Source: Candidatus Poribacteria bacterium (GTDB lineage Bacteria > Poribacteria > WGA-4E > JAJDTR01). Taken from it: DNA of 64,000 nucleotides. Below are positions 36,208-62,396 of the stretch, piece by piece (positions within the stretch are counted from its first letter, which is position 1; each line of letters starts with the position of its first letter). The notes below the pieces were generated by a model, which was given only the letters and a program-made list of their open reading frames with translations, was not told where the DNA came from and ran no database searches. Position numbers and translations under genes: made by a program. The stretch lies in contig CBDCTK010000002.1 in the NCBI GenBank assembly GCA_965222225.1, forward strand, positions 2,656,001 to 2,720,000, in the 5' to 3' direction.

Positions 36208-36622
36208 GATCAAGCGACTGAATAAGGAGTGCGATAGTAAATCCCTCAAGCGACTGATTAGGGAGCGATCAAAGGAATGAATAATGACTGCGATAGAGTT
36301 CCCATGGTAAATCCCTCAAGCGACCAATCAACTGAACGAATAGCGAATGCGATAGCAACTCTTACAAGTCGGGAATCGGAACGGATCTCTATCGCCCTGA
36401 GAGATCTATCGCATTCGCTCATTTGATTTATGCGGTCGGTTGATCGGTTTCTTCGTTGGATCTTCGTGGATTCTGTAGGAGCGATCTCCGAATCGCGAAC
36501 ATCACCGAATTGCGCCGAATTGGGAATCGGAACGAATCTCTATCGCAGTCGCTGTCCGCTCCCTTGATCCCTCACTATCCGATCGGTTGATCGTTATCCA
36601 CTCGATTGATCTCATTTGATCG
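36208..36622. repeat. Dense cluster of the 30-nt tandem-GA hairpin repeat (representative locus)
   Basis: GATCAA-NN-GA-NN-GRATA-NN-GA-NN-GCGATAG, full, truncated and nested. Other loci near 5560-5630, 11010-11095, 12925-12980, 15173, 25912-25960, 27433-27495, 31375-31440, 38050-38180, 46223, 46384, 46812, 48126-48190, 49822-51935, 52840-52980, 53390-53680, 57305-57380, 61238, 62270-62360. Confidence 0.92.
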
Positions 36623-36805
36623 TTCAACCCAACCTACATGGCTGCCCTTTCGCTTGACGGGGAGATCCACCGCTCATAGAATAGACGTCATCCTTCCCGA
36701 GCTAACCCAATGCTTAGAAAGGAGAGCGGAAGATACCTCAACGACGAGCAGACGATAAGCAGACTTAACGACAATGGCTAGTTCTGAATGAGGGGGGCAC
36801 ACCAA

Positions 36806-37777
36806 ATGTCTAGCAAGATGCGAAGGATTCGCTGGATTGACGAGCAGATCCGAGCGAACCGATATCCAAACGCTCATAAAGTCAAGGAGAAGTTTGAACT
36901 CCGCAGCACTCGGATCGTCTACGAAGACAGGAGCTATATGGTAAATGAACTTCATGCGCCTATCAAATATAGCAGAAACAAAGAGGGATGGTATTACACG
37001 GTCCCAACCTATTTTCTTCCGGCAATAATGCTGAAGAGGGAGGAGGTCGCCGCTTTTTTCTTGGGAGAGGAGTTATTCAAGCGCTATCTGGGCACCCCCT
37101 TTGAGACGCCGCTCCGGCTCGCACTCGAAAAGATAACACAGCATTTGCCGGAGCATGTAGGCGACGCCGCGCAACGGGACAATTCCGCGTTTGCTTTCAC
37201 GGGCGGCAGCAGAGCGATAATCGATCCTGAACTATTGATAGAACTCAACGAGGCTATCCTTTCAAAACGTTCGGTTGAAATGGAGTATTATTCGGCAAGC
37301 AGCGGTCAAACGAACACGCGCACGGTTGATCCGTATCACCTCCATAACATTCACGGCGACTGGTATCTAATCGCCTATTGCCACACACGACGCGAGCCTC
37401 GCGATTTTCTTATCAGCCGCATCAGATCGCATAAACGCCTACTATCTACGTTCCAGATACTCCCGAGTTTTTCTCTTGATGGCTACTTGGCTAAAGGATT
37501 CCTCGCCGAGCGGGCGGTAGAGCCCGATGATGTTGTGATAAAGTTTGACGAGTATCAGGCGCGTTGGATAAGGGAACGGCTATGGCACTCAAGTCAGCAG
37601 GTGGAGGAGTTGCCGTCCGGTGGATTGATATTTCGCCTGAGAGTCGGTGGATTGGGCGAAGTAAAGCGGTGGGTCATGGGATATGGAACGCATGCGGAAG
37701 TTCTTGAGCCTGAAAGCCTTCGCCGTGAAATCGGGGACGAAGTGAAAAAAATGGCGGAAATCTACGATAAAAAGTAG
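36806..37777 (+). CDS. WYL-domain (HTH-WYL-WCX) transcriptional regulator adjacent to the cas operon
   Basis: RTVDPYHL..IHGDWYLIAYC...RDFLISRI; EVKRWVMGYGTHAEVLEPESLR; start chosen from GAGGGG RBS. Confidence 0.93.
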   Translation: MSSKMRRIRWIDEQIRANRYPNAHKVKEKFELRSTRIVYEDRSYMVNELHAPIKYSRNKEGWYYTVPTYFLPAIMLKREEVAAFFLGEELFKRYLGTPFETPLRLALEKITQHLPEHVGDAAQRDNSAFAFTGGSRAIIDPELLIELNEAILSKRSVEMEYYSASSGQTNTRTVDPYHLHNIHGDWYLIAYCHTRREPRDFLISRIRSHKRLLSTFQILPSFSLDGYLAKGFLAERAVEPDDVVIKFDEYQARWIRERLWHSSQQVEELPSGGLIFRLRVGGLGEVKRWVMGYGTHAEVLEPESLRREIGDEVKKMAEIYDKK

Positions 37778-38225
37778 AGTGCGTATATATTGCACTCTGG
37801 GATGGTATAATAGCGGGAGATTGAGTCAAGAAACGAGTTTTTTGGAAGACCTCGGTTTCTTCGGTATTCGCTTGTCTGTTTCTCGGTAAAATTGTATCGG
37901 TGGAGAGTTGGATTTCGGATATATGAAGCAAAACGAGAACCTCGAATGCAATCCGAATTCTAGGCTTTATTCGTAATTTTCAGTTCAACCCAACCTACGG
38001 CATGATGCAGTTTTTCTTATTATTTCACTTCACACGGATAGCGATCAGGATTTACTATGGGAGTTCTATCAAGACTTTCTATCGGGATTTACTATCGCAC
38101 TCATTAGCCATTCGCTTGATCCCTCATTATCCACTCGGTTGAGGGATTTGCTATCGCGCTCCCTATCCGGTCGCTTGATCGCGGATGAAAAGCAGGCAAT
38201 TTGATTTTCGATCGAGGATAAAATA

Positions 38226-39164
38226 ATGACACAACTTCAAAACTTTCGACTGGCGCGCTACCGACTGACGCTGACGGCGTTGTCAACGATTACGATGCCG
38301 CCTTACGCCGGCTCGACGCTGCGGGGCGGGTTCGGTCATGCCTTCCGAAAGATGGTGTGCACTCAGGGACCAATCGACTGCCGGGACTGCACGCTCAACG
38401 CGGTCTGCCCCTATCCGTACATCTTCGAGACGGCGCCGTTTGAGGGGGCGCAGCAGTTGCGAACCTACGGCGATGTGCCGAGACCGTTTGTCATTGATCC
38501 GTTGGATACGCGGGGCGAATACCGCAGAGGCGAATCGTTCTCGTTTCAACTCACGCTCATCGGGCGCGCTATCGATTATCTCCCCTATTTTTTGGTTAGC
38601 TTCCGCGAACTGGGGGAAATGGGGATTGGCAAGGGACGCGGGCGATTCCAGTTGGCGCATGTCCGCACGGATGACGGGGAATCAATCTACGACGGCGATA
38701 CGCAGATGGTGCACAATCTCGATAACGCTCGGAGTTTCGACGATATCCAACGGGAAACGGAATCACAAAAGACGGACGAGTTGACGCTGCGGCTGCTCAC
38801 GCCGACACGCATCACGCACGAAGGGGCGCTGACGGATCAACTGCCGTTTCACGTGTTCTGGCGTAGGCTCATCGGACGGATCTCGGCGTTGGCGTATTTC
38901 CACTGCGGCGAATCGTTGGAGATGGATTTCAAGGGGCTAATCGAAAAGGCGACGAGTGTCGAGATGACGGATTCGACGCTGCGCTGGAAGGATTGGACGC
39001 GGTATTCGTCTCGGCAGGACCGGAAGATGCAGCTCGGGGGGTTGGTGGGGCACGCCACGTATGCCGGGGATTTGGAGGCGTTCGTTCCGTTCGCGGCGTT
39101 GGGCGCGTATCTGCATGTGGGGAAGAATGCGACGTTTGGGTTGGGGAAGTATAGGGTGGAGTGA
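38226..39164 (+). CDS. cas6: CRISPR pre-crRNA endoribonuclease Cas6
   Basis: GSTLRGGFG, CxxC..C, PRPFV, WTRYSSRQ, G-rich loop HVGKNATFGLGKY. Confidence 0.95.
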   Translation: MTQLQNFRLARYRLTLTALSTITMPPYAGSTLRGGFGHAFRKMVCTQGPIDCRDCTLNAVCPYPYIFETAPFEGAQQLRTYGDVPRPFVIDPLDTRGEYRRGESFSFQLTLIGRAIDYLPYFLVSFRELGEMGIGKGRGRFQLAHVRTDDGESIYDGDTQMVHNLDNARSFDDIQRETESQKTDELTLRLLTPTRITHEGALTDQLPFHVFWRRLIGRISALAYFHCGESLEMDFKGLIEKATSVEMTDSTLRWKDWTRYSSRQDRKMQLGGLVGHATYAGDLEAFVPFAALGAYLHVGKNATFGLGKYRVE

Positions 39165-39173
39165 GGTTTTGTA

Positions 39174-41615
39174 ATGTCTAATTTTGAGAGAGACGAACAG
39201 TATTGGGATAGCCACTTTAAGAACATGTTTGGCGAAGTATTTGTTCCCTTTGAGTTTCAACGCAAGGTAGCAGAACATCTTCTAAGCGGACGAAATGTGA
39301 TTTTACAAGCCCCAACAGGAGCTGGCAAAACGAAAGCCGCTTTGTTTCCGTACTTGTTGGCTCAACAGGAAAATATACAATTTCCTCGAAAGTTGATTTA
39401 CACTACTCCTATGCGAGTCTTGGCAAAGAACTTTCACACCGATTTCAAAGAATCACCAATAGGGCAACAGACGTGCCTCAAAGCGGAAATCCAGACGGGT
39501 GAAAATCAAGATGACCGTCAATTTCGTAGCGACCTGATTTTCACGACTATCGATCAGGTGTTGAGTAGTTTTCTTAACATCCCGTACGCGCTGGGGTTGC
39601 GTCAAGGTAACGTCAACGCTGGCGCAGTCGTCGGCGCGTATTTAGTTTTTGATGAATTTCACTTATTCGATCCTGATACCTCGTTGGGAACTGTGATTGA
39701 AATCCTGAAGATGCTCAACGGTATCACGCCGTTTTTACTAATGACTGCCACTTTTTCAGAGGTGCTTCTTGAGCGTTTGAGCGAATACTTTAACGCGGAA
39801 ATCGTGCCAGTGACAGAGGCTGAACTTAAACAAATCCCTTCTCAGCAAGGAAAACGCCGTGAGTATCGGGTTAGCGGGGGAACACTTTCGGAGAACGTAG
39901 ACACGATTATTGCGCAACATCAACAACGCAGTATCATTATCTGCAATACGGTGAAACGGGCTCAGAATATGTTTCAATCACTGCAGAGCAGTTCGCAGCG
40001 AGGTACTGATACGGAAGTATTACTTTTACACTCCCGTTTTCTGAAGGAACACCGAAAAGCCAAAGAGGACATGATACGCTGTCGTTTCAAACGAGACGCG
40101 GGACTCGACGATGTAATTTTGGTTGCGACGCAAGTGATTGAAGTTGGGCTAGACATTAGCTGTGAGAATCTGCACACAGAACTGGCTCCCGCAAGCGCAA
40201 TTTTACAGCGCGCGGGGCGGTGCGCGCGGTTTGAAAACGAATCTGGAACAGTGACAATCTATCCTATTCCACCTACGACCAACGGTTCACCAAATTATGC
40301 CCCTTATGATAAAGAAACTTGTGAAGCCACGATGGCGGCATTTCAACACCGAAACGGAGGTGTGCTAGGCTTTGTAGCAGAGCAAGAGGTTGTCAACGAA
40401 GTCCACCGCGAAAGCGATGAAAAAATTTTGGCAGGTATTGAGACACGCCCAATACGCAGTCGTATATCAGAAGCGATTTCTGGACAGGAACTAGGTCTTG
40501 CCCGTGAATTGATTCGCAAGGATGACTCGCGTATGTTGCTCGTACATGATGAACCCGAAACACTTGATAAGCCGTTTCGCGTTGAAGGTTTCAGCCTATA
40601 TCGCGGCACACTGTTTGGAGTGTGGGATGAGCTTCAACAGGCGGCGCAAGAAAAGGAGCTGGGTTGGTCTCTGAAGTATCCTAAGGAAATGGAAGACAAC
40701 TCGCCAAACAGTCGTACTACCATTGCCTATGAGTGGCATGAGGCAAAAGAAAAGAAAGACTTAGGTATTTCTCCACTGTTTGTAGTGCATCCAAAACTGG
40801 TTAAATACAATACCGAGATAGGTTTCTGTCTTGAAGCAGGGACGACACCTTGTCCACTAAGCGTACCTGACGATGAAACCACGCAAGAAGCTGACTGGGG
40901 CAAAGGCTACTATCGCGAGACATACACCGAACATATCCAACACCTGTTGAATGCATATCAATCTGGTCTAGCGACTGAACTAGATTACGCCGCCGCGCGG
41001 CTTGAACAGAAGTTGGAGGCATCTGAAGGCGCCGTCGATCGGGCAGTAAGGCTCTGCATTGCCCTCCATGATGTCGGGAAACTGACGGTTGGTTGGCAAG
41101 AATGGGCGCACAAATGGCAAAAAGAAATTGGTGAACCTGTCGATGAAAATTACATGGCGGCGCATACCGATTATGACCGTAGCAATCTTGCCATACGCGA
41201 AATAGAAAAGCAATTCCGCGTCAAAGTCAAACGGCCAGGACATGCTGTTGAAAGTGTTTGGGCGGTTGCACCACTGCTAGCAAGAGTCTTAGGCAAAGAA
41301 CAGAAAAATTTGGCGGAAGCCTGTTTCACTGCTATTGGACGACACCATGCACCGCGCGCAAAGGACTGTTCACCCTACACCCTGCACCCTTATGCGCCAT
41401 CTGAGATCGAAACGGTTCTAAAGAAGATAGGAAGTTTAGGGCAGGAGACTCAACGACACTTCGAATCCATCTGTAAGCACAAGGAACCTACAAAGCCTTT
41501 TTCCCATTTTGTCCAGCCGTCTAACACGCTTGCACTACTAACCTATTTCCTGATTGTGCGCGCTCTACGGCTTGCTGACCAAGAAGCAACCTCAAAAGTT
41601 AGCAGAAGGGAGTAA
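39174..41615 (+). CDS. cas3: Cas3 helicase with C-terminal HD nuclease
   Basis: APTGAGKT, DEFH, TAT, HSRF, TQVIEVGLDIS, QRAGRCAR; C-terminal EH, HDVGK, H, HH, LADQ. Confidence 0.94.
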   Translation: MSNFERDEQYWDSHFKNMFGEVFVPFEFQRKVAEHLLSGRNVILQAPTGAGKTKAALFPYLLAQQENIQFPRKLIYTTPMRVLAKNFHTDFKESPIGQQTCLKAEIQTGENQDDRQFRSDLIFTTIDQVLSSFLNIPYALGLRQGNVNAGAVVGAYLVFDEFHLFDPDTSLGTVIEILKMLNGITPFLLMTATFSEVLLERLSEYFNAEIVPVTEAELKQIPSQQGKRREYRVSGGTLSENVDTIIAQHQQRSIIICNTVKRAQNMFQSLQSSSQRGTDTEVLLLHSRFLKEHRKAKEDMIRCRFKRDAGLDDVILVATQVIEVGLDISCENLHTELAPASAILQRAGRCARFENESGTVTIYPIPPTTNGSPNYAPYDKETCEATMAAFQHRNGGVLGFVAEQEVVNEVHRESDEKILAGIETRPIRSRISEAISGQELGLARELIRKDDSRMLLVHDEPETLDKPFRVEGFSLYRGTLFGVWDELQQAAQEKELGWSLKYPKEMEDNSPNSRTTIAYEWHEAKEKKDLGISPLFVVHPKLVKYNTEIGFCLEAGTTPCPLSVPDDETTQEADWGKGYYRETYTEHIQHLLNAYQSGLATELDYAAARLEQKLEASEGAVDRAVRLCIALHDVGKLTVGWQEWAHKWQKEIGEPVDENYMAAHTDYDRSNLAIREIEKQFRVKVKRPGHAVESVWAVAPLLARVLGKEQKNLAEACFTAIGRHHAPRAKDCSPYTLHPYAPSEIETVLKKIGSLGQETQRHFESICKHKEPTKPFSHFVQPSNTLALLTYFLIVRALRLADQEATSKVSRRE

Positions 41616-41621
41616 AAACCG

Positions 41622-43415
41622 ATGTACCAACAGACTTATTTCGTTGATAAGCCGACAGGCACATTTGCCGATGTTTGTTCAGCTTTCGGATTGGCAACTG
41701 TCCTAGACGAATTCTTACGACGTGCTCTCGGTGAACACAGTTTTCGCACTGTCAAAATAATGGATCAGGGGACGACGTACGCGATTGAACTCACCCCCAT
41801 AATGCAAGAAGAATGGGTCGAAAGTCCAAATTTCTTTTCCCCTATTCCCTTCATCAAGACAGGGAAAAATAGTGCAACGATGCCAGAGGAAATTTACAAG
41901 ATTGAATACGACGAAGAGAAACAGATTTACGATGAATATAGAGAAGCCCGTCGAATTCTGGGGCAAACGATTCATCGCGGCGGAAGCGAGAGCCAAGGCG
42001 ATGCCGCTTTACCGGACAAACCAAAACCCAACTATCCGGTTTGGCAGAAAATCAACATGATGTCGGGGATCAGTTCTTACAATGCTGCTGTGGGCAACTG
42101 GTTTGAAGCTCGTGGGGAATTCGCAGAGCTTCTCCATCTTCTTCTTGCACTTCACGCCACCACGCCTAATCCGGTTTCAGCCTGTGAGCAAGAATGGAAA
42201 AAACTCAAAAAGGCGGGGAATCTTTCTGGAAAAGACCGCTTGAATATGCTGCAAATATTCAACCCGAGTACCGGAAAAGGCCAAAACGCCACAAAAGCAA
42301 ACAGCTTGTCGATGGGTAACGTAAGCAACTTTTGGTTGTGCGAATACATAAAGATGGTCGGTTTCTACCGTTGCGCGTTACCACGATTCGTGTCAGTGAA
42401 ACCTGGCCAGCCACCGACGGACCGAAAAACCTTCGCATTAGCGCCTATCAACATGACACTTGCGGCGCACAACGACATTTTCAATAGCTTCCGTGACACA
42501 GTGAGAAGCAATTACGCAATAAAGTCTGACATCTTTGCGGCGCTCAACTACACACAATGCTTTCTGAAATACTCCGAAGAAGCTCAGGAATCTGATGACT
42601 TATGGGGTGACGGTCCCCATGACTTTGTCGCAGGAATGCACACCGCCTTTTATAAAGATCTCGGCAACTCGTCCGCCGTGATGAACCTTTCCTTTATCAA
42701 TCTACCACGCTGGATGAACGTTCAAGATATAGATGATGTGCAGATATACCGCGAGATGATAGCGGAACACCTGCAAATCATAGGAAGTTTAGAAGAGGAA
42801 CGGAGTGAAGGCTTTCAACTGCTCCAACACTATCGGGACTTCCTATCCGGTCACGATTTCACGGCGTTCTTTGAGTTCACAGCGAAATACCCAAACTACC
42901 TGCTTAATGCCTTAGCGAAGGAACATTTCTGGGTTAAGCCGTTGAGCGCAACTAATTTGAGGAGGTTACTCATGAGAAACGAAAAAAAACTCACGCCAAT
43001 TATCAAAAGCGAGGGTTTTCAAAATATCGCTAGAGCCATCCGCCAAAGCACCGTGACGCTACAGTATATGGCGAGAAGCGGAAACCCCCCGTATGACATT
43101 CGATATGGACTCGGACAAGAATTGCGACGCAAGGCGAACTATCCGGACGAGTTCATTCAGGAATTAGGTGATTTTCTACACTCTTTCAACGCGGAAAATG
43201 CCCGCGTAGCGGAAGTTTCATCCGAAAGGGACCGGCGGTTCCGGCGGAAAAGCGTCCGTGTAGATGACATCACCGAAATCGTTCAATTGATTGATGAACA
43301 CGGGGCCCAAACCGTCTGTCATTTGCTGCTAGCTTTCGGATACGCTTCTACCAGCCACGATGAGGCGCCGACAGACGATGCCACCTCCCACACCCAACAA
43401 GGAGAAGGAAAATGA
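41622..43415 (+). CDS. cas8: Type I Cascade large subunit (Cas8-like)
   Basis: 597 aa between cas3 and cas7, NPSTGKGQN motif; assignment mainly positional. Confidence 0.75.
   Translation: MYQQTYFVDKPTGTFADVCSAFGLATVLDEFLRRALGEHSFRTVKIMDQGTTYAIELTPIMQEEWVESPNFFSPIPFIKTGKNSATMPEEIYKIEYDEEKQIYDEYREARRILGQTIHRGGSESQGDAALPDKPKPNYPVWQKINMMSGISSYNAAVGNWFEARGEFAELLHLLLALHATTPNPVSACEQEWKKLKKAGNLSGKDRLNMLQIFNPSTGKGQNATKANSLSMGNVSNFWLCEYIKMVGFYRCALPRFVSVKPGQPPTDRKTFALAPINMTLAAHNDIFNSFRDTVRSNYAIKSDIFAALNYTQCFLKYSEEAQESDDLWGDGPHDFVAGMHTAFYKDLGNSSAVMNLSFINLPRWMNVQDIDDVQIYREMIAEHLQIIGSLEEERSEGFQLLQHYRDFLSGHDFTAFFEFTAKYPNYLLNALAKEHFWVKPLSATNLRRLLMRNEKKLTPIIKSEGFQNIARAIRQSTVTLQYMARSGNPPYDIRYGLGQELRRKANYPDEFIQELGDFLHSFNAENARVAEVSSERDRRFRRKSVRVDDITEIVQLIDEHGAQTVCHLLLAFGYASTSHDEAPTDDATSHTQQGEGK
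42972..43415 (+). CDS. cas11: Putative internally translated small subunit (Cas11-like), 147 aa
   Basis: GGAGG at 42961-42965, 6 nt before an in-frame ATG inside cas8; helical-looking C-terminal domain. Confidence 0.65.
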   Translation: MRNEKKLTPIIKSEGFQNIARAIRQSTVTLQYMARSGNPPYDIRYGLGQELRRKANYPDEFIQELGDFLHSFNAENARVAEVSSERDRRFRRKSVRVDDITEIVQLIDEHGAQTVCHLLLAFGYASTSHDEAPTDDATSHTQQGEGK

Positions 43416-44410
43416 GCGATAACAAAGCGGTTTATTCCCTCACCATCTGTGGTCAAGCCACAATTGATATGCACTCCCTCAACAACGAAGGAAGCGAGGG
43501 AAACCAGATTGCAACCCGAATGGTCAACGTCTACGATGAGGCGGGAAAACTCGCTGCCGTGAACGCAATTTCAGGCGATATGTTCAAACACATTCAAGCC
43601 GAACATCTGTTTCATCTGAGCAGAAATAGTGGACTGAAGCTATGTTCGGGGTGCCAAAGATTCAGTGCAAACCGTATCCTTGATGACGAGACTTTTGTCG
43701 ACAGCTTCGAAAAAAACACCCCCGACGAGGAGATAGTTGCAAAGATGGTGCAAATGTGTGCCATTGATGACGTTGAAGGCATTCTTGTTACAGCGAAGAA
43801 CAAATCCACGCCGCGCAAGTCGATTGTGGAGTTTGGTTGGGTCGTCGGCATACCCGAGTTGAACACGACAGATAACTACTTCCATGTCAAGTATGTGTCA
43901 GATAGTGGAGCACAAAACGCAGATGACAGCGACAGCGCTGATGGCGGTGGAGCTAATCTTGGACAGAACATCTTCCATCGTCCCGCGAATTCGGGGATTT
44001 ACGCAGTTGTCGCAGGGGTTGAGGTTTCACGGCTCGGTTTCAACGATATAAGTCAGGCTTATGCCATTGATGACCAGGAGCGAAATCAACGATACAAAAC
44101 GTTGATTGAGAGCCTACTTTGTACTTTTGTCGATCCAAACGGAGCCATGCGAAGTGCTCAGAATCCCCATCTCGTTAACTTTGAAGGGGTTGTCAGTCTA
44201 AGCACTAAGATTTTGCCCGCGCCAACAATCAGCCCGCTTAACGCCGAATATAAGGACGAAATCAGACGTGTTGCAGACGCGCTCAATCAGATTGAGACGG
44301 ACGCAATTGAACGCCACGAGTTTGACTCACTCGGCGGTTACGCTGAAGTGATGGCAAACCTTGCCAATACAACTGTACCTTTCAAAATCAGTTATAACGG
44401 AGGGAACTAA
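43412..44410 (+). CDS. cas7: Cas7 (DevR/Csa2 type)
   Basis: HSLNNEGSEGN, AISGDMFKH, CSGC, CAIDDVEG, RKSIVEFG. Confidence 0.9.
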   Translation: MSDNKAVYSLTICGQATIDMHSLNNEGSEGNQIATRMVNVYDEAGKLAAVNAISGDMFKHIQAEHLFHLSRNSGLKLCSGCQRFSANRILDDETFVDSFEKNTPDEEIVAKMVQMCAIDDVEGILVTAKNKSTPRKSIVEFGWVVGIPELNTTDNYFHVKYVSDSGAQNADDSDSADGGGANLGQNIFHRPANSGIYAVVAGVEVSRLGFNDISQAYAIDDQERNQRYKTLIESLLCTFVDPNGAMRSAQNPHLVNFEGVVSLSTKILPAPTISPLNAEYKDEIRRVADALNQIETDAIERHEFDSLGGYAEVMANLANTTVPFKISYNGGN

Positions 44411-44411
44411 A

Positions 44412-45113
44412 ATGTGGGTGTCAGCTACCTATAAGCCCGCCACGTTCTTTTCGCTCAAGCCAAGCAATGCTACATCGTCAGGCGGTAAAACGTTGTTAAC
44501 ACCAACGCCTTATGCGATAAAGATGGGGCTGTTAGATGCCGCTATACGCACATGTGGAATCAGTTACGGGGAGGAAGCATGGGAATGGATACGCGGCTTG
44601 TCATTCGCGGTACGTGTTCCCGACCGTGCGTTAGTTAACAACGTGTTCACGCGTATTCTGAAGCCTACTCGTTCTAAGGACAAGGACGGATACGATAGAA
44701 CTATCGGCTACCGCGAATATGTCCATTTCATTGGCGCCATGAAATTGGCATTTGAAATACAAAATGATTTGTTGGTTGATGCAAAGGGACAACAGTTGAA
44801 CAAACTTCTGCCTCACATCACATACTTGGGGAAACGTGGTGGATTCGTTCAATTAATTCCCCCGGTACAATCGCTTGAGACACTACCCGCTGACTTCACG
44901 CTTTTGAGTGAAAAAAGGGATACATGGCATATCCAAAGTCAGTTACAGCACTTGGACGATTGCGACGATGAGATGACTTTCGAGCAAGCCGATATTTACA
45001 GTGGGAAGAACGTTCGTGTTGGCAAGGAACGGCACACCTTTCTTGCCATGCTTCCCTATCGACTATTGAGATCGAGTCGTGGTTTTAGCGATTACGCGCG
45101 TCTGGACATCTGA
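44412..45113 (+). CDS. cas5: Cas5
   Basis: FSLKPSNATSSGGKTLLTPTPYAIKM, YREYV, YLGKRGGF; follows cas7. Confidence 0.87.
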   Translation: MWVSATYKPATFFSLKPSNATSSGGKTLLTPTPYAIKMGLLDAAIRTCGISYGEEAWEWIRGLSFAVRVPDRALVNNVFTRILKPTRSKDKDGYDRTIGYREYVHFIGAMKLAFEIQNDLLVDAKGQQLNKLLPHITYLGKRGGFVQLIPPVQSLETLPADFTLLSEKRDTWHIQSQLQHLDDCDDEMTFEQADIYSGKNVRVGKERHTFLAMLPYRLLRSSRGFSDYARLDI

Positions 45114-45122
45114 TTTTCTGTA

Positions 45123-45190
45123 TTAACGATGTGCTTCCATATACGCCCGCAAAGATATGGCGTGCTTAGGAATCACGACGTGGGAGTCTA
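45123..45190 (-). pseudogene. Second, internally deleted brnA-like remnant
   Basis: Reads VVIPKHAISLR-AYMEAHR*, i.e. the 46119-46473 protein with the stretch between its two LR dipeptides removed. Confidence 0.6.
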
Positions 45191-45211
45191 TCCGAGGCGT
45201 TGTAGGGGCAA

Positions 45212-46000
45212 TTAGTTGCTTGCTACTATCACGAGCACGAGAACAAAAGTCACAGCCATGAATCCCGCAATTACGAAACCAACCTCCCTTGGTTGTTCTG
45301 GAGGGGCGATTGCGGGCGTCGGAGGTGGTGGCGGTGGGCGGCCAAAAGTGACACCATTTTCAATTGCCTCGCCTTGCAGCATTACCATAATGGTTTCCGT
45401 AGTAGCGGGGTAGTATTGTATCCAGTGCGTTGACACCCCGGCCGGCAGGGACGTGGGATCAAAACTGTCGTAGTACAGATCGTAGGGCAGAGCTTCCTTG
45501 CGATGAAATTCAGTGATAATTGCACCGTGTTCGTAGGAACGATACGCATTAACCACCGCGGTAAGGATGTTTTCAGCCAAGGAATCTCCGTAGCTCTGAA
45601 GGGGTGTAGTGAGTCGGTCAATCTGTGCGCCTTCGCGCAAAGGTCCACCGTAGAACTTATACATCACATGGTCTAAGGGCAGGGGCTTTACGATTGAATT
45701 TGAAGCGTTAATAACCTGAATCGGGTTCAATCCTAACTCGTATGTGTCCTTGGTTTCATTCCGGCAGGAGGCGCCAATTCCAATGATGGCATTACTCGGA
45801 TTCCCAACTTGCCGGAATTCCGTGCAAATCAGTCCAAAGGTTAAGTCATGCGTCTCCAGCTTGCCAAGTTCTTGCATTCCTGTGTTCGATTCGTTTGGCA
45901 ACGTCCAAAGTTGCGATTGCCACTGTTTTACGTAGGGAGTGGAGCAGCCGATAGTTATAAGGGGAGTTACGAGTAAAATCAGTAGCGATATCCGTCCCAT
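45212..46000 (-). CDS. Hypothetical lipoprotein with Pro-rich linker and C-terminal membrane anchor
   Basis: Lipobox TIGC, PPPPPTP, hydrophobic C-terminus; AGGAG RBS. Confidence 0.72.
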   Translation of the reverse strand: MGRISLLILLVTPLITIGCSTPYVKQWQSQLWTLPNESNTGMQELGKLETHDLTFGLICTEFRQVGNPSNAIIGIGASCRNETKDTYELGLNPIQVINASNSIVKPLPLDHVMYKFYGGPLREGAQIDRLTTPLQSYGDSLAENILTAVVNAYRSYEHGAIITEFHRKEALPYDLYYDSFDPTSLPAGVSTHWIQYYPATTETIMVMLQGEAIENGVTFGRPPPPPPTPAIAPPEQPREVGFVIAGFMAVTFVLVLVIVASN

Positions 46001-46118
46001 AGAATTCTCCTGGTGTTTGGTGGGTCACTAGCAGAGTAAATGTATAGTGCGCCAATCCTTAGGTTGTGTTATGGTTTCCAATCTTCAGCATGCGCTAACG
46101 GAATGAAAGGAGCAATTC

Positions 46119-46473
46119 CTAACGCTGCGCTTCCATGTACGCCCGCAAAACGGCGTTCATGCGGGTCTGGTAACCTCGACCTTGGGATTTAAACCACGCG
46201 AGTACGTCACTATCAGGGATTTCTATCGCACTCCTTATTCAGTCGCTTGATCGCAGGGAGATGGCGTGTTTGGGTTGGGGTATCACGACTTGGGCGTCTT
46301 TCCAGAATGCTTCATCGGTGGGTTGGGCGTCGGGGTCGGATGCCGCTGCTTCATCAATCTCTGCCTCGGTCACTGTGGAATTTCTATCGCACTCGTTATC
46401 CACTCGTTTGATCTGTTTGTGTGTCGTCGGGGACGTTATCGGAACTGTTGTCAGAGTAGGTGGTAACAGACAT
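46119..46473 (-). pseudogene. BrnA-family antitoxin disrupted by two hairpin-repeat insertions
   Basis: MSVTTYSD...DDTQTD [insert 46384-46413] TEAEIDEAAASDPDAQPTDEAFWKDAQVVIPQPKHAISLR [insert 46223-46252] DSDVLAWFKSQGRGYQTRMNAVLRAYMEAQR*. Confidence 0.85.
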
Positions 46474-46475
46474 GG

Positions 46476-46757
46476 CTAATCCAGGTGATAACCGAATTCT
46501 TCGGTGAGGATGCGCTTCTCTTCTTCCGTGTCGGCCTCGACGATGTCTTTATGGAGGACATAGTAGTGCGTTGCTTCAAGGGCAACTTCAAGCGGCAACC
46601 CGAAGTTCCTAGCCGTTCCCTCAAGTGTCTCGTGTTCGGTGCGCATGGAGGCGATAAGGTGCCAAACGGTCATGTTCCTGCCCTTTATCCAGACCTGCCG
46701 CCGCCAGTTTTTGGGACGGGCTTCAAGATATTTGCAGGTTTTGCAGCGTTGGCACAT
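46476..46757 (-). CDS. DUF433-like antitoxin protein
   Basis: IKGRNMTVWHLI...ARNFGLPLEVALEATHYY; start uncertain. Confidence 0.7.
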   Translation of the reverse strand: MCQRCKTCKYLEARPKNWRRQVWIKGRNMTVWHLIASMRTEHETLEGTARNFGLPLEVALEATHYYVLHKDIVEADTEEEKRILTEEFGYHLD

Positions 46758-47002
46758 AATTTGGGAGCCTCTGAATCAATCTTTGTCACGGAAATTACCT
46801 CACTGTAGGAGCGATCAAGTAAGCGAATAGCGCACGCGATAGAGATCTTCTCCAGGTCGCGATTCCCTACTAAATTATATCCGAAATTCAAGGTTCACGC
46901 AAGGATTTAGACCGCCCCGTATGCATGTCTCTGAAAGAAACCGAGTTTTGTGGAAAAAACTCGGTTTCGTTGAACGTCCGTTACTCCTGTAGGAGGAAGA
47001 AA

Positions 47003-48112: not shown

Positions 48113-48263
48113 GGGGCGGGAAACCGATCAACCGAGTGGATAACGAGCAGGATAAACTATCGCCTTCGCTATTCGCTCAGTTGATCGATAGAGATCCTTT
48201 TTTTCTTGAAAACTCGGTTTCTGCTGACCACTAGTCACTGAGCACTGGCAACTGTGTTTTGCC

Positions 48264-49821: not shown

Positions 49822-50018
49822 GATCAAGCGACCGGACAGGGAGCGCGATAGCGTTCCGTCAAATGACCGATTAGGGAGCGCGATAGCAAGCATGTAAGAG
49901 TTATCTGGGCGCCAACAGCGGCACCTAGCTCACGTAGTTACCTTTGCTCGGATGAAAAGGAATGTCTTCAAGTGGGACAAGAAGATTTCTATCGCATTCG
50001 CTATTCGCTCATTTGATC
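49822..50018. mobile_element. Hairpin-bounded cassette inserted in CRISPR repeat 5 (cargo type A)
   Basis: Starts GATCAA, ends TTGATC, flanked by duplicated CCCGAYGAAAAG. Confidence 0.85.
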
Positions 50019-50104
50019 CCCGACGAAAAGCGGACTGAAAGTGCTCAACGCGGATGTGCATATCGCTATTGAGCGCAGTAGCAACCATTGCCGCGATGAA
50101 AAGC

Positions 50105-51103
50105 GATCAAGCGAACGGATAGTGAGTGCGATAGAGATTCCATAGAGTTCCTTCAAGCGACCGGATAGGGAGCGATCAAAGGAATGAATAATGACTGCGA
50201 TAGAGATTTCATAGAGTTACCTCAAATGGAGTTACCTCAAGCGACCGATTAGGCAGTAAGGCTTTCTATCGCATTCGCTAATCGCTCATTTGATCCCCGA
50301 TGAAAAGCGATCAAGCGAACGGATAGTGAGTGCGATAGTAAATCCCGTGCGATAGAGATTCCATAGAGTTCCTTCAAGCGACCGATCAAAGGAATGAATA
50401 ATGACTGCGATAGAGTTCCGTCAAATGACCGATTAGGGAGCAGGGCTTTCTATCGCCTTCGCTAATCGCTCAGTTGATCCCCGATGAAAAGGATCAAGCG
50501 ACACCGGACAGGGAGCGATCAAAGGAATGAATAATGACTGCGATAGAGTTCCCATAGAGTTTCCGCAAGCGACCGATTAGGGAGCGGGCTTTTCTATCGC
50601 CTTCGCTATTCGCTCAGTTGATCCCCGACGAAAAGGATCAAGCGAACGGACAGTGAGCGCGATAGCAAGCATGTAAGAGTAATCTGGGCGCCAACAGCGG
50701 CACCTAGCTCACGTAGTTACCTTTGCTCGGATGAAAAGGAATGTCTTCAAGTGGGACAAGAAGATTTCTATCGCCTTCCCTAATCGCTCAGTATTCGTTC
50801 GGTTGATTGCTATTCGCTTGCTTGAGGGATAATCTATCGCGCTCCTTATTCAGTCGCTTGATCCCCGATGAAAAGGATCAAGGGAGCGAATAGCGACCGC
50901 GATAGCAAGCATGTAAGAGTTATCTAGGCGCCAACAGTGGCACCTAACTCACGTAGTTACCTTTGCTCGGATGAAAAGGAATGTCTTCAAGTGGGACAAG
51001 AAGATTTCTATCGCCTTCGCTAATCGCTCAGTATTCGTTCGGTTGATCGCTATTCGCTTGCTTGAGGGATAATCTATCGCGCTCCTTATTCAGTCGCTTG
51101 ATC
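50105..51103. mobile_element. Five consecutive hairpin-bounded cassettes in CRISPR repeat 6
   Basis: 50105-50295, 50309-50479, 50492-50623 (repeat-only type B), 50636-50863 and 50876-51103 (type A, 240-nt period), each separated by CCCGAYGAAAAG(C). Confidence 0.85.
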
Positions 51104-51333
51104 CCCGATGAAAAGGGGACTGAAAGAGCGGCTAGTACCCTGCCGACCCGTAGGCTGCTTTTGTAGCAACCATTGCCCCGATGAAAAGCGGACTGAAAGG
51201 CCACTTGCAGTCAATGAGTAAGCATAGAAAGCCAGTAGCAACCATTGCCGCGATGAAAAGGGGACTGAAAGTCGTGATATGCGGCGCGGCTGGGATATTA
51301 CAAGCTGTAGCAACCATTGCCGCGATGAAAAGC

Positions 51334-51541
51334 GATCAAGCGAACGGATAGTGAGTGCGATAGTAAATCCCGTGCGATAGAGATTCCATAGAGTTCCTTC
51401 AAGCGACCGGACAGGAAGCAATCAAAGGAATGAATAATGACTGCGATAGAGATTTCATAGAGTTACCTCAAATGGAGTTCCCTCAAGCGACCGATTAGGC
51501 AGTAAGGCTTTCTATCGCATTCGCTAATCGCTCATTTGATC
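51334..51541. mobile_element. Type B cassette in CRISPR repeat 9
   Basis: Near-copy of 50105-50295; same junctions. Confidence 0.85.
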
Positions 51542-51773
51542 CCCGACGAAAAGGGGACTGAAAGGCCCAACCGTTAATCTCTTTAATCGGCTTAACGCCA
51601 GTAGCAACCATTGCCCCGACGAAAAGGGGACTGAAAGCGCGCAGCATCAACGATCTCCAGAGCGAGAAGTTGCGTAGCAACCATTGCCGCGATGAAAAGC
51701 GGACTGAAAGTCCATAAAAAGTTAGATGATTCCATACCAAAATTATAGTAGCAACCATTGCCCCGACGAAAAG

Positions 51774-51935
51774 GATCAAGGGAGCGAATAGCGACCGCGA
51801 TAGCAAGCATGTAAGAGTAATCTGGTCGCCAACAGCGGCACCTAGCTCACGTAGTTACCTTTGCTCGGATGAAAAGGAATGTCTTCAAGTGGGACAAGAA
51901 GATTTCTATCGCCTTCGCTAATCGCTCAGTTGATC
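51774..51935. mobile_element. Type A cassette in CRISPR repeat 12
   Basis: Same cargo as 49822-50018; same junctions. Confidence 0.85.
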
Positions 51936-52255
51936 CCCGACGAAAAGGGGGCTGAATGCTTCCTAATTCATCTTGCGCCATCTCAATTGAAATCTGCCCT
52001 GGATGAATCCGTCTATGAACGCAGATTAGATGCCATCTTCTTCAGTTCAATCCCCTCAAAATAGGCGAATCCCATTACGACGCCAATGAGATCGCCGCAA
52101 TTCAAAATTGAACCAAGCATGCTGCCGAAACCCCTTTGAGGTCGTAGGCAAGCGGTTCCCCATGCGCATCTGCCACAAACTGCGCCGCTGGCCCCAGCAC
52201 CTGCTGCCAACCAAAAGGAAACCGAATCCTATGTATGAATCGCGGCGGTTTTTAA

Positions 52256-52284: not shown

Positions 52285-53487
52285 AGCGCCAACTCGGCGA
52301 TGCCGGTTAGAGATAGTCGCACACCTGTCGCTTCCGGTAATGAGCCGCCGAGAGGAAAATCCAATGTGTATTGTGTGCATTGCGTTCACCCGCGCATCCT
52401 CTAAATCTGTGCTATCAAAAGCTTCCACCGTCTTTGAAGAAGTGAACGCGCCTTCCGCGCATGGCGCTGAGTGTCAAACTTGTTCGCCTTTGCGCACGCT
52501 GTGTGACGCGAAATTAGTAATAAAACCTATGAGCAAATTGTCGAATCTGTGTCTAAACCGCTTTTCCGGTTCACCTGTTTTTGCCCCTTTTCCGCGTCGA
52601 ATTTGTCGGCACATGAGCGAATCTCGGTGGCATCCGGTCGCAGCGCCTGCCACTGTTTTTGGCAATTTTCGCAGTACGGCGGTGAACGAGGTAAAAGTTA
52701 TATTCGCAGTTTATCGCAGTTTATCGCACACTCAATCACGACGCCAAAACCATGTACGAAGCCACGCTACGACACGCTACGACGCAGTTCTCGAGTCGTA
52801 ACGCATTAACTGCGATACAGATTCCTCAAACCACTCTAGGATCAAGCGACCGATCAAAGGAATGAATAATGACTGCGATAGAGTTCCCTCAAGCGAGCGA
52901 TTAGCGAGTGCGATAGAGATCTTACTGCGATAGAAAATCCCGATAGTAGTTCCTGATAGAGCTCCCATGCGATAGTAGAGCCCGGCGCGAGAGCATTCCT
53001 AATAAACCCTCCCCAAAAAATATCCACTAACCCCTGCTTTTTTCATTGACCACATTACACATGTATAATATGATGCCGACCAAACGGATATACCGATGAA
53101 TGAATACCGTACTCCCCGCATTGCCAAACTGTCCTGCTCGAACGGATTAGGTCTTCGTCTATGTGCGCACCGTGACTTGACCTTCAAAACAACGATCTTT
53201 TTCTCTTGTACCTATTTTGTACCTATTTGCCGGTAGGTGAACCCGCACTATCAATGAAAACTACTGAAGCAAACAATGTGAGCACCCTCTCGAAATCGCC
53301 GCTCCGTTCACATTCCTGTACCTCTTTCTGGTGCGGTATTTTTACAGAAAATAGGTACAACCACCGCCTAACCCACCCCAAATGGGTGCTGGATCAACTT
53401 TTTTGTACACGCATTCGATCAATCAGCTAAAATCAACCGACTGGATGGCGTGCAGGATTTTTATCGCAGTCGATGTCTGTTCCTTTA

Positions 53488-53784
53488 GATCCTGTTTGAA
53501 AAGTACAGTTTGTAGGGTGCGATCAAAGGAATGAATAATGACTGCGATAGAGATCCCCTGCGATCAACTGAGTGGATAACGAAGGCGATAGTCTTGTAGG
53601 GTGGGATCAAGGGAGCGAATAGCGATCAAGCGACTGAATAAGGAGCACGATAGAAATCCCGTGCGATAGAGATCCTACAGGTATGTAGCAGCCAACAATT
53701 ATGTAGCAGCCAACAATGAAAACATGAAAAAACTTTCTACAAATGACCAAAAATGGCTTTGCCACCGATTATTCAAACAGGTTC
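53488..53784. mobile_element. MITE with IS5-family-like ends, filled with hairpin repeats
   Basis: GATCCTGTTTGAA ... TTCAAACAGGTTC flanked by TTA; the same right end recurs at 57398-57410. Confidence 0.6.
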
Positions 53785-53883
53785 TTAATCGATAGAAATC
53801 CGAGGGCTATTGAGTTCCTACAGTAGTCCAACTGCGATATACATCTTGTACTACTCTAATCAGCGATGTAAGGGAGAATCGAA

Positions 53884-57266: not shown

Positions 57267-57608
57267 GAGGCATGGGTGAGTGGAGGTCGCGATCGGGAGA
57301 GGGATCTCTATCGCGCTCATTATTCATTCGCTTGATCGCAGGGGATCTCTATCGCAGTCATTATTCATTCCTTTGATCGCACCCTACAAGATTATTATTC
57401 AAACAGGTTCTTAGTCTCGGTTGAGATCACAAATCGCTGGACACGATCACGGATTTATAATAGAATACAACTTCGGGATTGCCTCGTGTCTGAGATGGAC
57501 TATTGTGTTTTCAAAGCATTGATTTGCGCGCGGGATAAGGGCGAGAGGAAGCAAATCTGCCGTTGTAATTTTTGCATTCATTAGATATATCAATTGTTGA
57601 GGAGGAAT

Positions 57609-60600: not shown

Positions 60601-61148
60601 AAACGAAGAAGACCGGTGAATCGATGGCTATCTTGGTGATTGAAGATTTGGAGGGCACCTTTGATGTGGTTGTTTTTCCGGAGGCGTACAAAATATCGCA
60701 GCATGCCATTGAGGAGGGGAACTTCGTGTGCATACGCGGGGCAGTGAGCCAGAATCGGCAGCAGGCGCGAACCGACGAAGGGGAGATCGAAGAGGATGTG
60801 CGCCAGATCCAAGCGTCGGAGATTCTGCCTATTGGTCAGGTCGAGGAGCGATTGACATCGGCGGTTGAGGTCACAATTCCCGAATCGGATGTCGCGAATC
60901 AAGAAAAAATGGAAGCGTTACAGGCAATCTGTAGCCAACACGGTGGGGACAACGACCTCATCTTAAAGCTCGCATACCCGCGGTACGGCGAGGTCGTAGC
61001 CCAATGCAGCCCGAAATACAATGTTTCGTATGAACCCACGCTCGTGGCGGAAGTCGAGGCGCTTTTTGGGGATGGCAGCGTCAAGCCCAGCAATCGGACG
61101 ACGCGAGTCGGGGAGCGCACAAACGGTTCTTCGGTTAGTTATGTGTAA
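57609..61148 (+). CDS. dnaE: DNA polymerase III alpha subunit
   Basis: PHP FVHLHNHSEYSFLDG, GRGSAGGS, RVSMPDIDIDF, KFDFLGL, YAFNRSH; GGAGG RBS. Confidence 0.98.
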   Translation: MATSAFVHLHNHSEYSFLDGACRIEGIVDWAYEQSVQAVALTDHGNMFGAWEFYKKAKDKGVNPIVGCEVYVAPESRHERGREQGSPYHLTLLAEDATGYRNLMKLVSLGYLEGFYSKPRIDMEILRAHRDGIIALTGCIQGYVPALLAANQREAAVTNFQRLQDVMGRDNLYVEVQNHGIPDEKRAYKVMTQLAQEHGLPIVGTNDCHYLNRSDHRMHDVLLCIQMKRTVDEENRMRFLNEFYFKNIDEMREALKDFPPEAIANTLEIANRCQLELDYGEQIMPKYEVPEGFTADSYLAKLCEDALREKYGEISTEMRKRLDDELDVIQKTGYAGYLLIVWDYVNFARHQKIPFIGRGSAGGSLAMFALGVTTFNPLEYDCLFERFLNPERVSMPDIDIDFGDEHRKIVIDYLTEKYGSECVGQVATFSTFAAKAAVTDVGRALDMEMQDVRRVTQLIPAVPGVTLDESLGDVPQFRELSEAPENRDMMEVAKSIEGMKRHVSIHACGIVLANGPLTDYVPLFKDKNDRVATQYNLKTLEDVGMVKFDFLGLRTLSEVYHCLAQIKERHGVELTLEGIPFDNEKTYQVISAGLVAGLFQLETSPGMRRVTMQIKPNNFEDFVPISALYRPGPLDSGMMDKFIRRKLKVEPVTYLHPTLEDALKNTYGVCIYQEQVMQIARDMADFTLAEADVLRDAMGKKKMDVLKMQREKFIEGAANNGIDKKKAGEVFDYLEPFGRYAFNRSHTVAYAIMSYQTAYLKTHYPREFMTSMMSGESGSSEKIVKYIAECRLLSEFLGIKMDVLPPGVNSSGWDFTVDGEDIRFGLAAVKNVNEGAIESIVKTREKDGSFTSLQDFCERVDSKAVSKRVIESLIMAGAFDSFEDGHRAQHLANLEQVMRVAQSAQADREKGQMNLFGDAEQELPVTEPVLDEVSEWEHSEVLKNEKEQLGFYLSGHPLEAYGDVLDYFTTASSQTLAENPNGTEVYVAGQISSFRLTKTKKTGESMAILVIEDLEGTFDVVVFPEAYKISQHAIEEGNFVCIRGAVSQNRQQARTDEGEIEEDVRQIQASEILPIGQVEERLTSAVEVTIPESDVANQEKMEALQAICSQHGGDNDLILKLAYPRYGEVVAQCSPKYNVSYEPTLVAEVEALFGDGSVKPSNRTTRVGERTNGSSVSYV

Positions 61149-61301
61149 AAATGTTGGAGATTTGGCGATCCCCGATGGAAATCAACGATTTGATGATCGT
61201 CGATCGCATCCTCCGAGAAGTGGTGGGCGGGGGATTCCTATCGCAGTCACTATCCGTTGGCTTGATCTCCGCTGTATCTTCAAATCACGAAAGGAATCAC
61301 C

Positions 61302-62123
61302 ATGCAATATCGCACACTCGGCCGCACCGGTTTGCGGGTCTCGGAGGTCGGATATGGCGGCGGGCGTGTCGCTCCAAATCAGGATAGGCGCCCGTTAATT
61401 GATATGCTCCATTCCGCCTTTGAGGTTGGGTTGAACTATCTTGACACGGCGCCCGACTACGGAGGCGGATTCAGCGAGGACATTATTGGCGAAGCGGTCA
61501 AGGGACGGCGAGATGAGTGCATTATCGCCACGAAGACCGAAGCCTTCGACCCCAAGGGCATCATGGCGGATGTAGATGGGAGCTTGAAACGGCTGGGGGT
61601 CGATGTGATTGACGTACTGCAGTTTCACGGCGGGTGGTTCGGCGAGGAGGAGACACAGCAGGTTTTGGATGACGGTGGATTAGAAACCTACCGGCTGCTG
61701 CGAGATCAGGGGAAGGTTCGGTTTTTAGGGTTTTCGGCGGATGGGCCTTCGGGAGGCGTTGAGCGCATGATTGGCACGGGCGAGTTTGATGTGATGCAGA
61801 TTCATTACAATCTGATGTATCAGAGCACCTGCGACACCTTCGGTAATCGCGGCATTATCCCCGATGCAAAGGCGCAGGGGATGGGAGTTGTGCTGATGCG
61901 GTCGACAACAAGCGGCGCCTTCCCGAAACTGATGCGGCACTGTTTCTCCAAAGAGATGGAGGGCGTCGACCTTGACGGGTTTTTGCTGAACTTTGTGCTA
62001 TCCAACCCGTTGGTTGATACCGCCTTGATGAGTTTGCAGAGCGCCGAGGACGTGAATTGGACGAATGCCGTTTCGGACGACCTTGATGGGCGGCTTGATT
62101 TTCGGGAGATATATAAGAGATAG
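61302..62123 (+). CDS. Aldo/keto reductase family oxidoreductase
   Basis: MQYRTLGRTGLRVSEVGYG, DTAPDYG, IATK, SLKRLGVDVID, GKVRFLGFS. Confidence 0.92.
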   Translation: MQYRTLGRTGLRVSEVGYGGGRVAPNQDRRPLIDMLHSAFEVGLNYLDTAPDYGGGFSEDIIGEAVKGRRDECIIATKTEAFDPKGIMADVDGSLKRLGVDVIDVLQFHGGWFGEEETQQVLDDGGLETYRLLRDQGKVRFLGFSADGPSGGVERMIGTGEFDVMQIHYNLMYQSTCDTFGNRGIIPDAKAQGMGVVLMRSTTSGAFPKLMRHCFSKEMEGVDLDGFLLNFVLSNPLVDTALMSLQSAEDVNWTNAVSDDLDGRLDFREIYKR

Positions 62124-62396
62124 GGCTCACGCAAATGGTCGCGTAAGGGCAGTTTATCCCCCGTTTCGACGCTACGATCCCCGTTGGAGCGATCTCCCGG
62201 TCGCGACTGCCTATGCGCGTGCGGGGAAAGATGCCCCGCCTACGGGGCTGGTGGGAGTTCTCTGGGAGCTCTATCGCGCAAAGATCTCTATCGCATTCGC
62301 TAATCGCTCATTTGATCCTAATCAGTCGGTTGATCGCTCACTATCCGTTCGCTTGATCCCACCCTACAAATATACTACAAATGTACAAAACCGAGC

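Follow-up and report, generated by a model that had tools for sequence, protein, structure and literature searches.

A dispersed 30-nt repeat of two genera of Candidatus Poribacteria has a covarying one-strand fold and behaves as mobile DNA

A 64,000-nt stretch of the genome of a Candidatus Poribacteria sponge symbiont (positions 2656001-2720000 of contig C2 of the host genome, G000; hereafter the window) contains many copies of a dispersed 30-nt repeat whose variable dinucleotides co-vary as base pairs around a tandem G.A mismatch. Comparison with close relatives and the way in which the copies nest in one another support the conclusion that this element behaves as mobile DNA and that its copies turn over fast between close relatives. 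In our judgment it is probably a non-autonomous, selfish and mobile mini-element of ∼34-37 nt, conserved in its shape on one strand, which is present at 500-1200 copies per genome in two Poribacteria genera.

Sequence and fold of the element

Searching with the pattern GATCAANNGANNGRATANNGANNGCGATAG (GATCAA-NN-GA-NN-GRATA-NN-GA-NN-GCGATAG, at most two mismatches) returned 43 matches in the window, 37 of them within 36208-62360, and none in 100 dinucleotide-preserving shuffles. The host genome as a whole (5.70 Mb in two contigs, 49.8% G+C) holds 983 matches, of which 489 are exact, 337 have one mismatch and 157 have two. These 983 copies include 560 distinct sequences, their density along C2 is very uneven (10-77 copies per 250 kb), and the most frequent twelve-mers of the genome are twelve-mers of the element. 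With the variable dinucleotides numbered N1 to N4, the eight copies given as examples in a preliminary description of the window all read as claimed there: 50174 (AG, AT, AT, CT), 50876 (GG, GC, GC, CC), 53562 (CT, GT, AC, AG), 27456 (GT, GT, AC, AC), 36208 (GC, CT, AG, GT) and, on the minus strand, 38151 (GC, CC, GG, GC), 46384 (AC, GT, AC, GT) and 62288 (AT, GC, GC, AT).

The core is joined through a spacer of variable length to a tail, mostly AGATCCC or AAATCCC; the tail noted earlier is thus present, but its length varies. Information content falls to about zero past 2-3 bases upstream and ∼7 bases downstream of the core, giving an element of about 34-37 nt once the variable A(R)ATCC(C) tail is added to the core. 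The modal unit of 34-35 nt has GATC at both ends, and the variable positions avoid making GATC. Among the palindromic tetranucleotides of C2, GATC and GGCC are strongly under-represented (observed/expected 0.57 and 0.34), a scarcity that suggests restriction pressure.

The written strand can be drawn as a hairpin with a short ATC/GAT foot, an AA/GC mismatch, two base pairs, a tandem G.A/A.G step, two further base pairs and a loop in which a G is closed by an A. Among the 560 distinct copies, the four column pairs with the highest mutual information (11-19, 1.06; 8-22, 0.76; 7-23, 0.68; 12-18, 0.32; next best 0.14) are exactly the predicted stem pairs, as expected from the proposal that the dinucleotides co-vary as base pairs. 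Standard pairs, including G.T, are found at these positions in 512, 504, 524 and 530 copies, respectively, and each stem pair occurs as three or four pair types: C-G, G-T, G-C and A-T at 7-23; C-G, T-A, G-C and T-G at 8-22; G-C, C-G, A-T and G-T at 11-19; and C-G, T-A and T-G at 12-18. The mismatches are kept as well, with G9.A21 in 513 copies, A10.G20 in 529, G13.A17 in 530, A6.G24 in 514 and A5.C25 in 518. Most conserved core positions exceed 93% genome-wide, and 15 positions are invariant among 32 window copies. In base composition the two flanks of the G.A step mirror each other, position 8 resembling 19 and position 11 resembling 22. The rule that A never precedes GA and T never follows it holds almost without exception: A occurs at position 8 in 3 of 560 copies and at 19 in 8, and T occurs at position 11 in 6 and at 22 in 8.

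The signal does not depend on a few repeated sequences. In 32 window copies (28 distinct), 96.9% of stem cells are paired, as against 77.7% after shuffling, and covariation scores 0.605 (shuffles 0.203); none of 500 shuffles reaches either value, and sliding the partner by 1-3 columns lowers the score to at most 0.115. The 156 distinct exact copies contain 45 (N1,N2) combinations, and 110 of them are fully paired, whereas shuffles average 19.8 and never exceed 31, so that the covariation does not come from a handful of lineages.

The pairing also identifies the strand on which the structure is maintained. Among the cells listed for the 560 distinct copies, 277 are G.T or T.G and about 53 are A.C or C.A, and because G.T is far commoner than A.C, the written strand is the strand under structural constraint. 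With RNA parameters, the fold of the written strand is more favorable than that of the complement for 148 of 156 exact copies (mean -4.3 versus -1.6 kcal/mol), and the minimum free energy (MFE) structure is the proposed fold in 106 of 156. Both results support the strand specificity originally claimed.

Insertion, nesting and turnover

To follow individual copies, we compared G000 with 400 kb of its closest relative, G005, which is syntenic with C2:2.55-2.72 Mb and parts of 3.9-4.05 Mb in blocks that are mostly 82-97% identical. Both flanks could be mapped for 30 copies (∼90% identity). At five of these sites G005 has the same copy, at five a different copy and at 20 none; the five shared copies differ by 0-3 changes between the two genomes, one of which converts a G.T to a G-C pair. 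Two sites are cleanly filled in G000 and empty in G005. At C2:2593545 the palindrome GAAACCGAGTTTT...AAAACTCGGTTTC is intact in G005 and holds the element in G000, with 34 nt extra, and at window position 46223 G000 has 33 nt extra. Within the compared region, a 27-kb block (C2:2548066-2575339) is 97.6-99.3% identical to G005 between adjoining syntenic blocks of 82-94%, a possible sign of recent exchange between the two species.

Copies also interrupt one another. A 5' partial copy lies directly upstream of 257 of the 983 copies, and these partials end at discrete positions: 23 (101 copies), 12 (45), 19 (40), 17 (28), 18 (18) and 10 (15). At the variable positions a partial is less like its neighbor (0.23-0.34 identity) than are random pairs (0.39-0.44), so that the partials are not local or tandem duplications. 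In 56 of the 78 cases in which a 3' remainder comes after the inner copy, the N4 of this remainder pairs with the N1 of the outer partial, against a random expectation of 37%, and in just 17 of 78 it pairs with the N1 of the inner copy. Because the outer halves are complementary to one another, stacked partial copies are the outcome of nesting, in which an entire unit entered one already present, and template-jumping synthesis was dropped as their source. Neighboring copies less than 400 nt apart have the same orientation in 251 of 320 pairs, with 50 +/- and 19 -/+ pairs.

To examine the insertion point, the 12 bases upstream of each copy were located elsewhere in the genome, and a consensus was derived of the sequence that continues them where no element is present; 522 copies had at least three paralogous sites, and 117 had a good continuation after the tail. 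A G directly follows the insertion point in the empty site in 115 of these 117 cases (60 of 62 distinct contexts), and the G of GATCAA may therefore belong to the target itself. The bases before the insertion point are weakly biased. The net gain is 33 nt in 19 cases, 34 in 37, 35 in 25 and 36 in 27, so that 108 of 117 insertions add 33-36 nt. There is no regular target duplication, and duplication of GATC was rejected, there being no mutual information between head and tail. The targets are mostly other hairpin-prone repeats, such as GTAGGGTGC^GCACTGCGCACC, GTAGGAGC^GATCTCC and GGCGGG^GCATCTTGCCCC (^ marks the insertion point), and they include a repetitive extragenic palindromic (REP) sequence next to a REP-associated tyrosine transposase (RAYT) gene, a palindrome, repeats of the clustered regularly interspaced short palindromic repeat (CRISPR) type and older copies of the element.

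Carriers, strand polarity and the copies in the window

In a scan of one genome per prokaryote species, all of the matches listed (at least 84 loci) were from Candidatus Poribacteria, and in 176 genomes of this phylum from 31 genera, searched with at most one mismatch, counts of at least 180 were found only in two genera from different families, g1 and g4. All 10 g1 genomes have 529-1216 matches and all four g4 genomes have 184-202, the g4 copies being less diverse. Of the other genomes, 155 have none and seven have 1-19 on few short contigs; in the four that were inspected (G010, G066, G125 and G146) the copies look like bin contamination. The stretch 35700-38300 of the window also occurs in sequencing runs of 10 studies. 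Hundreds of copies in every g1 and g4 genome, together with runs from 10 studies, are not what a library artefact would produce.

Comparison with Rfam gave no match at the gathering score for the whole window and none at E up to 10 for 35800-38400, which holds six copies. In 140 kb of G005, Rfam yielded nothing but a group II intron (RF00029, 51.4 bits, at 8305-8399 of locus L155, G005:C1:3820001-3840000). Viral contigs contained no exact match to the element, and no paper that describes it was found in the literature available to the search. A 'Poribacteria-1' RNA motif was reportedly listed in a 2017 survey of structured RNAs; a search of the same literature for this name found no paper.

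The orientation of the copies follows replication, as judged from GC skew, and not transcription. On crude longest-open reading frame (ORF) gene calls, 41 of 980 copies lie inside ORFs of at least 150 aa, though such ORFs cover 77% of C2, and between co-directional genes the element is sense in 311 cases and antisense in 266. Of the two roles first proposed, mobile or regulatory, the former is supported by the filled and empty sites, the nesting and the turnover, whereas the near equality of sense and antisense copies gives no support to the latter. In contrast, GC skew in 100-kb windows sets the two strands apart: the written strand is the negative-skew one for 672 of 980 copies, and singletons show the bias too (251 of 386, Fisher p 7e-9). 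The bias is found whether the flanking genes are leading (205:99) or lagging (228:80) and in the other arrangements (90:44 and 116:67). Gene-strand bias likewise points to the G-rich strand as the leading one. On the usual reading of GC skew, the fold is on the nascent lagging strand, which is the leading-strand template. In 250-kb bins the skew itself reverses sign six times or more over the 5.6 Mb of contig C2, which suggests rearrangements or assembly joins.

The polarity may stem from insertion or, equally, from preferential loss of copies that fold on the lagging-strand template, in which case the polarity would arise even if insertion favored neither strand; deletion of hairpin-forming repeats in E.coli is reportedly biased by strand. 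G000 also has several REP families of the GTAG type, each with about 90-140 copies (GTAGGGTGCGCA, GTAGGAGCGATC, GTAGGGTGGGCA, GTAGGTTGGGTT), in all of which the GTAG strand is mostly on the negative-skew strand. The polarity of the REP families is that of the element: 96:33, 85:58, 73:18 and 65:25 in four large families, and 13:3 in another. The element was initially set apart from these REPs; it does lack the GTAG tag, but it shares their replication-strand polarity and often sits inside them.

The 43 copies of the window are listed in Table 1. Several lie in a CRISPR array at 49700-52000 (repeat GTAGCAACCATTGCCCCGAYGAAAAGGGGACTGAAAG), where, as read from the sequence, four of nine repeats are interrupted after ...GAAAAG. 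Inverted element copies bound these composite inserts, and a 12-nt duplication, CCCGAYGAAAAG, flanks them; the composites, which contain a spacer-like stretch and a degenerate repeat, occur repeatedly in the array, and one split repeat holds about 1 kb with several of them in a row. Direct repeats flank 4 of 58 (+,-) element pairs, all four in this array. A type I cas operon at 36788-48112 encodes a WYL/WCX regulator, Cas6, Cas3, an unassigned 597-aa protein, Cas7 (DevR/Csa2), a weak Cas5 match and Cas1, and element copies at 38092, 38151, 46223, 46384 and 46813 lie between its genes. The window also contains an insertion sequence (IS) at 24456-25502 that encodes a 339-aa DDE transposase (DDE_5/DDE_Tnp_1), ends in GGAGTTACGCAGTTG and has many copies, 87-96% identical, in G005, G003 and G009.

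Table 1. Positions of the 30-nt element cores in the window
Core	Strand	Remarks
5580..5609	-	nested: 5' partial copy upstream, 3' remainder downstream
12929..12958	-	23-nt 5' partial copy before it; absent from orthologous site in G005
15173..15202	+	
25923..25952	+	10-nt 5' partial copy before it
27456..27485	+	23-nt 5' partial copy before it
31375..31404	+	unchanged in G005
36208..36237	+	G005 ortholog T23>C (G.T to G-C)
36267..36296	+	within 186-nt stretch absent from G005
36326..36355	+	within the same 186-nt stretch as 36267..36296
36540..36569	-	three stacked 5' partial copies before it (10, 19, 23 nt)
38092..38121	-	
38151..38180	-	upstream of cas6
46223..46252	-	clean filled site, 33 nt extra versus G005
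46384..46413	-	
46813..46842	+	inserted in GTAGGAGC... REP
48157..48186	-	
49822..49851	+	left end of composite within CRISPR repeat
49989..50018	-	right end of composite begun by 49822..49851
50105..50134	+	within CRISPR repeat
50174..50203	+	commonest variant, 45 identical copies in genome
50266..50295	-	
50309..50338	+	
50384..50413	+	
50450..50479	-	
50517..50546	+	
50594..50623	-	
50636..50665	+	
50834..50863	-	
50876..50905	+	
51074..51103	-	
51334..51363	+	within CRISPR repeat
51420..51449	+	
51512..51541	-	
51774..51803	+	within CRISPR repeat
51906..51935	-	
52852..52881	+	
53521..53550	+	inserted after GTAGGGTGC of GTAG REP
53562..53591	+	
53624..53653	+	19-nt 5' partial copy before it
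57308..57337	-	
57349..57378	-	inserted after GTAGGGTGC of GTAG REP
61238..61267	-	
62288..62317	-	stacked 5' partial copies before it

Mobilization and competing explanations

In the reading as a selfish mini-element, which we think probable, what is conserved is the shape on one strand together with the letters around it. New copies insert beside a G of the target, most often within other repeats prone to hairpin formation, and each insertion adds 33-36 nt with no regular target duplication. The element would move through, or be recognized in, a single-stranded DNA state, and a structure-specific enzyme would be supplied in trans. An HUH/Y1-type nuclease such as RAYT would be the most natural candidate, and none was identified.

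Several observations weigh against this reading. The 3' junction is fuzzy, with a tail of 4-10 nt and 0-4 target bases lost, and the empty-site consensuses are those of paralogous repeats, and some filled copies may descend from one composite. DNA nearest-neighbor parameters give the proposed fold as the MFE structure in just 8 of 156 copies, and DNA folds of three copies, both strands each, are no better than shuffles (z -0.17 to +1.42). The hairpin is therefore not predicted to be stable as bare DNA, which leaves the earlier expectation unconfirmed, and a DNA hairpin would likely need a protein partner; because sheared G.A has no term of its own among these parameters, the result neither proves nor excludes a DNA hairpin. 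The IS200/IS605 elements, as described in excerpts of PMC6006769, combine single-strand hairpin recognition with no target duplication and movement coupled to replication, and enter the lagging-strand template. Our element differs from them in having one hairpin instead of distinct left and right ends, a single G instead of a tetra- or pentanucleotide as target and, if GC skew is read in the usual way, a folding strand opposite to the lagging-strand template; with this polarity a plain IS608-like insertion would not fit.

A further point against it is that the search for a mobilizing gene found none among Y1_Tnp genes, reverse transcriptases, the intervals between inverted copies and viral contigs. 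G000 has five Y1_Tnp matches, and no Y1 locus of G000 or its relatives is consistently flanked by the element. The best of the five, a RAYT gene at C2:3080255-3080728, does lie between inverted element copies. However, this gene and its homologous loci (L112-L141) have a REP of their own, AAAGCCCCAGNGGGGCGACAGGTG, inverted on the other side and kept across four genera, and the element is inside this REP in G000, G001 and G005 only, where it splits the downstream REP that reads CACCTGTCGCCCC... in most relatives. The gene and its REP are clearly a REPtron distinct from the element, and it was rejected as a partner on the evidence of the 18 homologous loci compared. GTAG REPs of their own flank two other Y1 genes. 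Y1 gene no. 2 is present in three of the 10 g1 genomes (G000, G005 and, as a fragment, G009) and in none of the four g4 genomes. Y1 remnant no. 5 (C2:3560268-3560525) is a truncated RAYT that retains only the C-terminal 86 aa; element copies flank it, and one replaces the missing 5' part. Full-length relatives occupy the same locus in other g1 genomes, and relatives in seven other g1 genomes examined have no copy within 700 nt. Clustering of 97 intervals between inverted copies gave paralogous families only and no recurrent driver; by eye, the largest looked like PhyH-type dioxygenases.

The element could instead be a true REP of an unusual class that is cut and spread in trans by a resident RAYT whose gene it does not flank, an explanation that we consider unlikely. 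Like REPs and REPINs, the element is a short extragenic imperfect hairpin present in hundreds of copies; REPs are believed to act in single-stranded form, the element has the strand polarity seen in the GTAG REPs of G000, and Y1_Tnp genes are present in all 10 g1 and all four g4 genomes. The discussion of PMC3733652 reports that the E.coli RAYT works on REP DNA in single-stranded form and requires an AA/GC mismatch for REP cleavage, and our element has an invariant AA/GC mismatch. However, the hallmark of REPs, a GT[AG]G or CGTC tetranucleotide at the hairpin foot (PMC3733652 and PMC6006769, in part), is missing: GATCAA stands at the 5' end, GCGATAG at the 3' end, and the flanks are almost without information. 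Nor was a REPtron found for the element, and its neighbors are mostly tandem rather than the inverted doublets of bacterial interspersed mosaic elements (BIMEs) and REPINs. Its stem has only 2+2 pairs around the tandem G.A, with every pair hypervariable, and 18 of 20 genomes of genus g6 have no copy, yet RAYT homologues of 76-77% identity occur in that genus.

Spread through an RNA copy and a reverse transcriptase, with the hairpin as an RNA structure, is improbable. It would explain the success of the RNA parameters, with which the written strand is favored by 2.7 kcal/mol, and the tolerance of G.U-type pairs, and contigs from RNA libraries hold many copies with varied flanks. These contigs have a very high summed depth over the repeat-bearing bins, but a DNA run matches it, they give no strand or ends, and they may hold DNA. 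The orientation of the copies is indifferent to transcription, nested insertion accounts for the stacked partials without template jumping, and the single weak RVT_1 match in the genome, in a 670-aa ORF, has no tie to the element. We regard as quite improbable that the element is a host-useful site selected locus by locus, whether for a nucleoid, replication or repair protein or as an RNA regulatory hairpin. The strong conservation of the core, the polarity relative to replication and the near exclusion from long ORFs would suit such a site; only 5 of 30 mapped copies kept in place in the relative, nesting within the element and within CRISPR repeats, 155 of 176 phylum genomes without a copy and the lack of orientation relative to genes would not. 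It is highly improbable that the 30-mers are terminal inverted repeats of miniature inverted-repeat transposable elements (MITEs) moved as double-stranded DNA by a DDE transposase. The CRISPR-array composites, with their inverted ends and 12-nt direct repeat, have this appearance, but direct repeats are restricted to four pairs, all in that array, and most copies are single or tandem, and a site in double-stranded DNA would require neither co-varying stem letters nor the G.A/G.T asymmetry. The one multicopy DDE IS examined was rejected as a source, its ends (GGAGTTACGCAGTTG) being unrelated to the element.

Among other structured repeats, integron attC sites are likewise defined by a one-strand fold, conserved boxes and free stem letters, whereas the element is dispersed, outside cassette arrays and far shorter. 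The small dispersed repeats (SDRs) SDR4, SDR5 and SDR6, which Elhai et al. are said to have described from Nostoc punctiforme in 2008, are reportedly 21-27 nt long, share a predicted hairpin with compensatory changes and nest in their own copies and in other repeats by a mechanism that was not known. The element has such compensatory changes and nests in its own copies too, but it differs in its phylum, its longer unit and its tandem G.A motif. As far as the available parts of PMC4390886 and PMC5861425 go, SDR5 inserts precisely into HIP1 and SDRs are limited to Nostocaceae; compared by description only, the target of our element is instead a single G next to hairpin-prone repeats. The suggestion that the element belongs to no described family agrees with the Rfam and literature searches, but small repeats with compensatory changes as such were already known in Nostoc. 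In its way of life it comes nearest to REPs and Nostoc SDRs. Because it fails the REP features tested (tag, REPtron and doublets) and lies outside the SDR taxon, we file it as a new variant of small structured dispersed repeat that is a member of neither family.

A bolder version of the mini-element reading is tentative and, on balance, doubtful. The element would be the smallest kind of mobile DNA, a 34-nt unit recognized purely as folded single-stranded DNA with the tandem sheared G.A as the handle. It would be moved by an enzyme unrelated to the RAYTs, perhaps one tied to the bounding GATC, and would home to hairpin arms including those of CRISPR repeats, and thus could break up a CRISPR array.

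How very short dispersed repeats such as REPs and SDRs multiply is unsettled, and the element is an unusually rich record of this process: there are ∼1000 copies per genome, all four stem pairs vary, nested insertions keep the order of events, and there is a one-base target rule and a clear replication-strand polarity. The pattern of 14 carrier genomes versus 155 without a copy should allow a driver gene to be found by phyletic profiling, and the tandem G.A step would be a concrete, testable feature for recognition of single-stranded DNA. The copies inside CRISPR repeats suggest that elements of this kind are able to damage the immunity loci of their hosts.

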